Below are positions 47,536 through 48,087 of a stretch of 64,000 nt of DNA, piece after piece. The number at the start of each line of letters is the position of its first letter. The stretch's first letter is position 1. A model generated the notes under the pieces. The model was not told the origin of the DNA and did no database searches. It worked only from the letters and a program-made list of their open reading frames with translations. The position numbers and the translations under genes were made by a program. Source of the stretch: Escherichia phage KEP3. The stretch is taken from sequence record PP047753; one strand, written 5' to 3'.

Positions 47536-47608
47536 TACTGTGAGAAGGATTCGAACCTTCTGCCTTTCGGTTATCAGCCGAATGCACATCCATATGTGCT
47601 TTCACAGC
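47536..47608 (-). tRNA. tRNA-Ile: tRNA-Ile (GAT)
   Basis: T-loop TTCGAAT, anticodon stem TTCGG/CCGAA, loop CTGATAA. Confidence 0.7.
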
Positions 47609-48087
47609 TTTGTTACCCCTTCGTGTACCTCTCTGTGGCAATTTGCACACAGTAATACACACTTATCAACTTCAGACTTCATTACCTCTATAGAGAAGTG
47701 TTTTTGTCCTACTGTGAAGTCCTTTGTATTAGGGTCTAAGTGGTGAAACTCTAAAGCCTTTATGCACTTATTGTATCCACAAATTGAGCAACAACCACCT
47801 TTGTAATCAACTAAAACCCTCTTAAGTTTGTCACGAGACTTTTTAACGTGTTGTGACTTCGCTTTCTTTTCTTCATCGGGGTTTTTGTATTGTTTCAGAA
47901 TACCATTTGAAATACATTCATCACAATACTTTCTTGATTTTGGTGTCTGCTTTCCACATGAATGACAAGAGCCTTCTTGTCTTCTTTTTGGATGACTCTT
48001 GTTGTTTACCCTTGCAGCACAAGAGCGTGAACAATACTTTCCACCTTTAACGGCTTTGTTGTCACAATCTTTATTAGCACAAAACAT
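47602..48087 (-). CDS. HNH homing endonuclease
   Basis: C-terminal CCSICGYNKC...EFHHLDPNTKD...CANCHREVH HNH motif; start set to ATG 48087 (GGTGA RBS) because ORF-track start overlaps tRNA-Met. Confidence 0.75.
   Translation of the reverse strand: MFCANKDCDNKAVKGGKYCSRSCAARVNNKSHPKRRQEGSCHSCGKQTPKSRKYCDECISNGILKQYKNPDEEKKAKSQHVKKSRDKLKRVLVDYKGGCCSICGYNKCIKALEFHHLDPNTKDFTVGQKHFSIEVMKSEVDKCVLLCANCHREVHEGVTKL

Follow-up and report, generated by a model that had tools for sequence, protein, structure and literature searches.

A free-standing HNH endonuclease gene in the tRNA operon of a wV8-like Felixounavirus, with proposed homing and processing-limited expression

The tRNA array of Escherichia phage KEP3 (record PP047753), analysed here in a window of 64,000 nucleotides, contains an open reading frame between tRNA-Met and tRNA-Ile that we interpret, with a probability of about three in four, as a free-standing HNH homing-endonuclease gene that has settled in a polycistronic tRNA operon, here that of a wV8-like Felixounavirus, a gene which would spread by homing and whose expression would be limited by tRNA processing. 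By sequence comparison the window is wV8-like Felixounavirus DNA, with 96-98% identity to wV8-like E. coli phages over the 12-kb structural region. A preliminary description of this DNA had already suggested a free-standing homing endonuclease, and this reading is supported by the sporadic occurrence of the gene (11 of about 283 related records), by a precise 493-bp insert, by clean empty sites and by a mismatch between the relatives of the insert and those of its flanks.

The array of the window comprises 26 tRNA genes on the minus strand (43756-49525), and the coordinates of the HNH ORF between its two tRNA neighbours were verified, giving 161 codons plus TGA (Table 1). ARAGORN and Rfam alike place nucleotide 1 of tRNA-Ile(GAU) at 47608, the Rfam score being 60 bits, and therefore the end of the ORF lies inside the tRNA, the overlap of a few nucleotides mentioned in the preliminary description amounting to exactly 7 nt. 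The beginning of tRNA-Ile is read by the ORF as (AA)G-CUG-UGA, that is, the last base of a Lys codon, a Leu codon and the stop codon (TGA, 47604-47602), which corresponds to nucleotides 5-7 of the tRNA. The tRNA-Ile of the window has A at position 8 instead of the near-universal U and still reaches this Rfam score.

Table 1. Coordinates of the HNH endonuclease gene, its domains and its neighbours in the window.
Feature	Position	Strand	Remarks
HNH endonuclease ORF	47602..48087	minus	161 aa + TGA stop; likely start ATG 48087-48085
tRNA-Met(CAU), upstream neighbour	48104..48180	minus	CCA end 16 nt before HNH start codon
tRNA-Ile(GAU), allele Ile-B, downstream neighbour	47533..47608	minus	ARAGORN and Rfam
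Shine-Dalgarno-like GGTGAT	48091..48096	minus	3 nt upstream of ATG 48087
ORF/tRNA-Ile overlap, 7 nt	47602..47608	minus	tRNA-Ile nucleotides 1-7, GCUGUGA
493-bp insert relative to empty site	47609..48101	minus	compared with BPS17L1 (Ile-B, empty)
N-terminal region, aa 3-58, two invariant Cys4 motifs	47914..48081	minus	alignment
HNH (beta-beta-alpha-metal) domain, aa 96-156: CxxC, HH, N, CxxCH, H	47620..47802	minus	alignment, AlphaFold2

Profile and alignment evidence confirmed that the encoded protein is an HNH nuclease, an assignment far beyond chance. Of the two domains that the preliminary description had proposed for an HMM search, HNH and AP2, only the first was recovered: a profile search matched PHROG 2255 ('HNH endonuclease') with E=2e-33 over the linker and the HNH domain, whereas in Pfam this sequence gave only sub-threshold HNH matches (14.1 bits against a gathering threshold of 21.4 bits) and the Pfam scan found no AP2 domain in the protein. 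Database searches returned 2492 homologs at E<1e-5, many of which carry a precomputed PF01844 match, and 11 of 33 close homologs matched PF01844 at E<0.01; PHROG families 3106 and 35854 are related HNH families. These three PHROG families and PF01844 are annotation families, the window protein lying below the threshold of the latter. No GIY-YIG domain was matched in the Pfam, PHROG and NCBIfam scans, and the NCBIfam scan of the protein returned nothing meaningful. In a sequence search of the PDB, the single protein gave marginal HNH-motif matches and the family profile none.

An alignment of 33 full-length relatives, 39-80% identical, revealed three invariant sets of four cysteines (C3, C8, C19 and C23; C41, C44, C55 and C58; C100, C103, C147 and C150), the third of which is made of two CxxC pairs, as in a structural zinc site. 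Residues H115, H116 and H151 never vary either, and conservation is 90% or more at N149 and H155, so that the zinc-coordinating Cys pairs and the HH...N...H motif pointed out in the preliminary description are both borne out, and none of the HNH residues, whose absence on alignment it had named beforehand as the ground for giving up the assignment, is missing. These residues line up with EIHH...ANCH...VH of the HNH domain of a group II intron maturase (6me0), with the catalytic His in HH, the Asn and the metal-binding His on an alpha helix expected of an HNH or His-Me finger nuclease. An AlphaFold2 model built with the same alignment (pLDDT 92) shows a core of two strands (112-116 and 143-147) and a helix (148-156), i.e. 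a beta-beta-alpha-metal fold, and the top PDB matches of this model in Foldseek are HNH domains, namely those of Cap5 (probability 0.99), the Gme HNH nickase, T4 endonuclease VII and Cas9, with E-values that are all weak (at least 0.017), as expected because the domain is so small. The N-terminal half resembles a pair of treble-clef or zinc-ribbon fingers, the DUF2116 treble clef being matched by 9 of the 33 homologs, and these Cys4 fingers presumably constitute the DNA-binding part.

Comparison of the array with insert-less relatives, which the preliminary description had proposed, defined the limits of the insertion precisely. In the empty site of BPS17L1, the CCA end of tRNA-Met is followed by AT and then directly by GCTGTGA, the beginning of tRNA-Ile, and in the window the 493-bp insert sits between this AT and the first base of tRNA-Ile, where it occupies the 2-nt spacer; no target-site duplication was found at its ends relative to this site. 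The insert brings in the ribosome-binding site and the ORF except for its last 7 nt, and hence no stop codon of its own, and both tRNA-Met and tRNA-Ile are intact beside it. The site was read as empty in UAB_Phi87 and BPS17L1, and in wV8 it is empty by annotation. The 1.7-kb region around the gene matches 283 phage records, almost all from Felixounavirus and relatives, about 96% of which lack the gene. The carriers are Henu11, with 97.6% identity in the ORF DNA, Henu12, which is a partial contig, and, at 83-85% identity, Felix O1 (two records), FO1a, MET-P1-301, garuso, Sl26, OPT-SAL01, L27 and S.Kent 1-2-1. Presence or absence at a single locus, precise boundaries and intact flanking genes are what is expected of a free-standing homing gene.

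The array varies in other respects as well. An exact 34-nt direct repeat occurs in two inter-tRNA spacers (48588-48621 and 49161-49194) and a T-arm-like tRNA fragment lies at 48541-48565. The preliminary description had suggested that the nuclease gene might account for the duplicated spacer and the fragment, an explanation that fails because the fragment and the repeat copy equivalent to that at 48588 are also present in the gene-less phages UAB_Phi87 and BPS17L1; searches for the second exact copy were negative in these two phages and in two carriers, Felix O1 and MET-P1-301. A 78-nt segment between tRNA-Met and tRNA-Lys (48181-48258) is shared with MET-P1-301 (100% identical) and Henu11 (83%) and is absent in Felix O1, UAB_Phi87, BPS17L1 and wV8; with a stable hairpin as its fold (-21 kcal/mol, z=-4.3) and no match in Rfam, it may represent either a small, stable RNA or some remnant. 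Downstream of tRNA-Ile, an indel of about 83 nt (47400-47480), which the window shares with UAB_Phi87, BPS17L1 and Felix O1 and which is missing in wV8, Henu11 and MET-P1-301, segregates independently of the HNH gene.

Further along the same strand (about 46896-46970) lies an element resembling tRNA-Trp, with CUCCAAA as its anticodon loop, which aligns to the tRNA-Trp of BPS17L1 and was called neither by ARAGORN at default settings nor by Rfam at E<=0.1; in wV8 and BPS17L1 the equivalent tRNA-Trp is accompanied by a paralogous HNH gene of 134 aa that the window lacks. In Felix O1 a different HNH gene, ORF45 (L001:1617-2009), stands in the place where the window (47121-47197) and most relatives have tRNA-Arg(UCU), which ARAGORN does not detect at that place in Felix O1, and this looks like a nuclease gene that has replaced a tRNA gene. 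ARAGORN also called a second tRNA-Met(CAU) at 49193-49269, which is not among the Rfam tRNA matches at E<=0.1; it may be that one member of this CAU pair is an initiator tRNA or a tRNA-Ile2.

The gene is associated with one of two alleles of tRNA-Ile(GAU) that occupy the same array position, Ile-A and Ile-B, which have only their first 4 and last 8 nucleotides in common (tRNA-Ile of the window compared with L003:2035-2110 and L096:1501-1576). Phages with Ile-A include wV8 and UAB_Phi87, both with an empty site, and Ile-B was found in all nine carriers inspected locus by locus. Over the whole set of records, the 11 with the gene have Ile-B and none has Ile-A, whereas those without it have Ile-B in about 35 cases and Ile-A in about 110, a linkage with a Fisher P of 6e-7 that ignores phylogeny, the records not being phylogenetically independent. 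Because gene-less Ile-B genomes are three times as common as carriers, the linkage could, in place of co-conversion, stem from a single old insertion that was subsequently inherited vertically and reshuffled by ordinary recombination.

Identities by segment indicate that the history of the gene is incongruent with that of its flanks. UAB_Phi87, with Ile-A and an empty site, is 99.2% identical to the window in the left flank and 97.8% in the right flank, and lacks the insert; Felix O1 and MET-P1-301 have 97.0-97.5% identity on the left, 95.5-96.4% on the right and 83-85% in the insert; in Henu11, a Mooglevirus, the figures are 87.4% and 81.6% for the flanks and 97.6% for the insert. Henu11, with the nearest HNH allele, therefore has the most distant flanks among the ten relatives compared, and near-identical flanks belong to gene-less phages. 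A Logan contig carries an HNH allele 98.9% identical to that of the window in a third combination of neighbouring indels. Taken together, the window looks like an array of the wV8/UAB_Phi87 type in which Ile-A has been replaced by a Henu11-type block consisting of the HNH gene and tRNA-Ile-B, with the shared ends of tRNA-Ile, and tRNA-Met, as the exchange points. Since the insert matches the Mooglevirus Henu11 while the flanks match insert-less phages, these comparisons indicate horizontal transfer of a cassette, as homing predicts. Simple insertion of the HNH gene alone into an otherwise unchanged array fits the Ile-B empty sites and fails for the nearest backbone relatives, because there the whole tRNA-Ile allele differs.

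In the homing model that we propose, the nuclease would, during co-infection, cut an array that lacks the HNH gene, either at the Met/Ile junction, close to it, or within tRNA-Ile-A, and repair off the HNH-carrying genome would copy the gene in and co-convert the adjacent tRNA-Ile allele. The mosaic pattern is the expectation for homing with co-conversion of a flanking marker, and ordinary recombination in the array could yield it too.

Between the two clades of HNH alleles, dN/dS is 0.16-0.20 at a dS of 0.53-0.67, the ratio being smallest in the zinc-finger and HNH segments and largest in the linker, a comparison that shows the HNH protein to be under purifying selection. This constraint could be taken as a sign that the nuclease has been recruited for the benefit of the phage, instead of or besides selfish homing, for instance by making breaks in tRNA genes that lead to tRNA gene amplification or exchange against tRNA-targeting host defences. 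Such a role would agree with the ties of the cassette to a particular tRNA-Ile allele, with the precedent of SegB, which evades Septu through tRNA gene amplification and has broad associations with tRNAs (PMC13096335), and with the genomic setting of the family, given that in a survey of homologs in 80 IMG/VR viral contigs and 4 GenBank phages (an Epseptimavirus, two Vequintavirinae and a cyanophage; loci L005-L088) tRNAs were found within 1.5 kb at 62 of 69 non-redundant loci, in many unrelated phages. However, the great majority of related phages do without the gene, two copies are apparently frameshifted, the window shows no tandemly amplified tRNA genes around the nuclease gene, and purifying selection is a property of active selfish homing-endonuclease genes too, so we consider a recruited function unlikely.

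The frameshifted copies also bear on whether the gene might be an inactive relic, i.e. an old insertion, immobile or unexpressed, whose patchy distribution arises from ordinary homologous recombination between co-infecting phages in a recombination-prone tRNA array. Of the 10 copies compared, 8 are intact, and the remaining two, MET-P1-301 and OPT-SAL01 (L093), share the same -1 frameshift in an A6 run at about codon 73, which truncates the protein before the HNH domain; no CDS is annotated at this ORF in either record, and the shared lesion is either decay or a sequencing error. Besides these copies, a relic would be in keeping with the position of the gene inside a tRNA precursor without a stop codon of its own, and with an array that is a mosaic of independently segregating indels (the 78-nt hairpin, the indel of about 83 nt, and the cassette of tRNA-Trp with the 134-aa HNH gene). 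Nevertheless, the copy in the window is intact with every catalytic residue and zinc ligand conserved, the dN/dS values over a dS of about 0.6 point to selection maintained on the protein, and the ribosome-binding site is kept in all copies, which makes a relic quite improbable.

With respect to its expression, the gene likely starts at ATG 48087, because the GGTGAT ahead of this codon is conserved (10 of 10 copies compared), the homologs begin there (their N-termini lie 1-3 residues ahead of the first Cys in the 33-sequence alignment), and the GenBank records of Felix O1, garuso, Sl26 and Henu11 annotate the same 486-nt version. The preliminary description had rightly noted that the longest version of the ORF overlaps tRNA-Met, since its start, ATG 48159, lies within that tRNA gene, but the idea that these 185 aa are the true product, favoured by the mere length of the ORF and by gene callers that gave still longer versions in other assemblies (P0001, 212 aa), was dropped as hardly tenable, given that the 24-codon extension is translated tRNA-Met sequence, found in empty-site phages too, and that the homolog starts, the GGTGAT and the four annotations all speak for ATG 48087.

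A promoter scan found minus-strand promoter-like sites upstream of the array (49672-49644 and 49581-49552) and one just after tRNA-Ile (47517-47489), and none between tRNA-Met and the ORF; such sites were no more numerous than in shuffled sequence, and for that reason transcription can only be inferred. As no promoter-like site separates the ORF from tRNA-Met, the gene would be transcribed only as part of the tRNA precursor, from which it is probably read. RNase P, in forming the 5' end of tRNA-Ile, would then sever the last 7 nt of the ORF from the message, and because the stop codon lies inside tRNA-Ile, this cleavage would leave a message without a stop, which would keep the level of the nuclease low. 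This is not a new proposal, the same processing having been suggested earlier for T4 segB/tRNA-Arg and for the endonucleases of the T5 tRNA region (PMC2330249), and we infer its application to the present gene.

The position of the ORF end against a tRNA seems to be a habit of the family. Among the 69 non-redundant loci, the stop codon falls inside the first 25 nt of a same-strand tRNA at 24, and 6 further loci have an ORF that ends with a stop of its own, placed 0-10 nt ahead of the tRNA. Most often the stop is a TAG made by tRNA nucleotides U8-A9-G10 (in tRNA-Asn, Thr, Ala, Lys and Gly), and one reading register is used at 20 of 30 junctions, where one third would be expected (binomial P=2e-4, uncorrected for relatedness). 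The window ORF is in this common register and stops one codon earlier (U5-G6-A7); with Ile-A in place of Ile-B it would stop at U8-A9-G10. The shared register may simply be a matter of compaction, the tRNA giving a free stop codon. No description of HNH ORFs terminating in tRNA nucleotides 8-10 was found in the literature searched, the coverage of which was incomplete.

A more far-reaching interpretation, which we put forward tentatively and regard as possible more than probable, is that these proteins form a widespread HNH lineage with three Cys4 sites, specialised for phage tRNA arrays, which would insert flush at the 5' end of a tRNA in a preferred register, use U8-A9-G10 (here U5-G6-A7) as stop codon, lose this stop to RNase P and carry tRNA alleles as cargo. 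If so, expression of the nuclease would be inversely tied to tRNA processing, and these elements would ferry tRNA alleles between phage genera and displace resident tRNAs, as with Ile-A and Ile-B.

For annotation, the practical value of this analysis lies in the correct start codon, in the stop codon shared with tRNA-Ile and in the recognition of frameshifted copies. It also explains differences in the tRNA arrays of otherwise near-identical Felix O1-like phages, which are in use for typing and biocontrol of Salmonella and E. coli. The more interesting part is the habit of the family of abutting tRNA 5' ends, which, if functional, would make the protein an HNH counterpart of SegB and provide a simple natural model for the restraint of a toxic nuclease through tRNA processing and for the transport of tRNA alleles between phages by homing genes, a matter of relevance at a time when phage tRNAs are seen as counter-defences.

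The gene itself is an ordinary and already known feature, given that its ortholog in Felix O1 (ORF44 or Felix01p085, NP_944863.2) is annotated as 'HNH endonuclease' at the same position and with the same tRNA-Ile overlap, and that the Felix O1 genome paper of 2010 counted six HNH homing-endonuclease homologs (PMC3185647). Further orthologs are Henu11 gp64, garuso_99 and Sl26 CDS0143, and all four, known from annotation, have like the window a 486-nt ORF overlapping tRNA-Ile by 7 nt; protein identity to the window copy is 80% in Felix O1 and 98% in Henu11. What distinguishes the window is the combination of an allele of the Henu11-type clade, which a dS of about 0.55 separates from the Felix O1 type, with a backbone similar to wV8 and UAB_Phi87.

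[quoted passage not shown] Unlike the window protein with its two N-terminal Cys4 fingers, the F-Tfl proteins have NUMOD or helix-turn-helix-type C-terminal regions, and homology between them was rejected, the only match of a tblastn search against the T5 tRNA region having E=0.17 and covering about 50 residues of F-TflIV, where it is confined to the HNH motif.

The closest parallel is offered by SegB of T4, which cuts tRNA genes and drives the preferred inheritance of the T4 tRNA region (PMC2330249), and which was recently shown to amplify tRNA genes against the host defence Septu, its homologs being widely associated with tRNAs (PMC13096335). SegB belongs to the GIY-YIG enzymes and the window protein to the HNH enzymes, so that the two are not homologous and the latter is no member of that family. 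For SegB, moreover, the activity, a 27-bp recognition site (T-psi-C motif) and biased inheritance have been demonstrated, whereas the window gene is known from sequence comparison. In both cases, however, a free-standing nuclease gene lies in a phage tRNA operon and is absent from close relatives, and the end of the ORF abuts the next tRNA in such a way that maturation is predicted to part the ORF from its stop codon, as was proposed for the segB message, cut between the last codon and the stop codon during tRNA maturation (PMC2330249). In T4 the neighbouring tRNA genes are inherited along with segB; the window protein may work like SegB.
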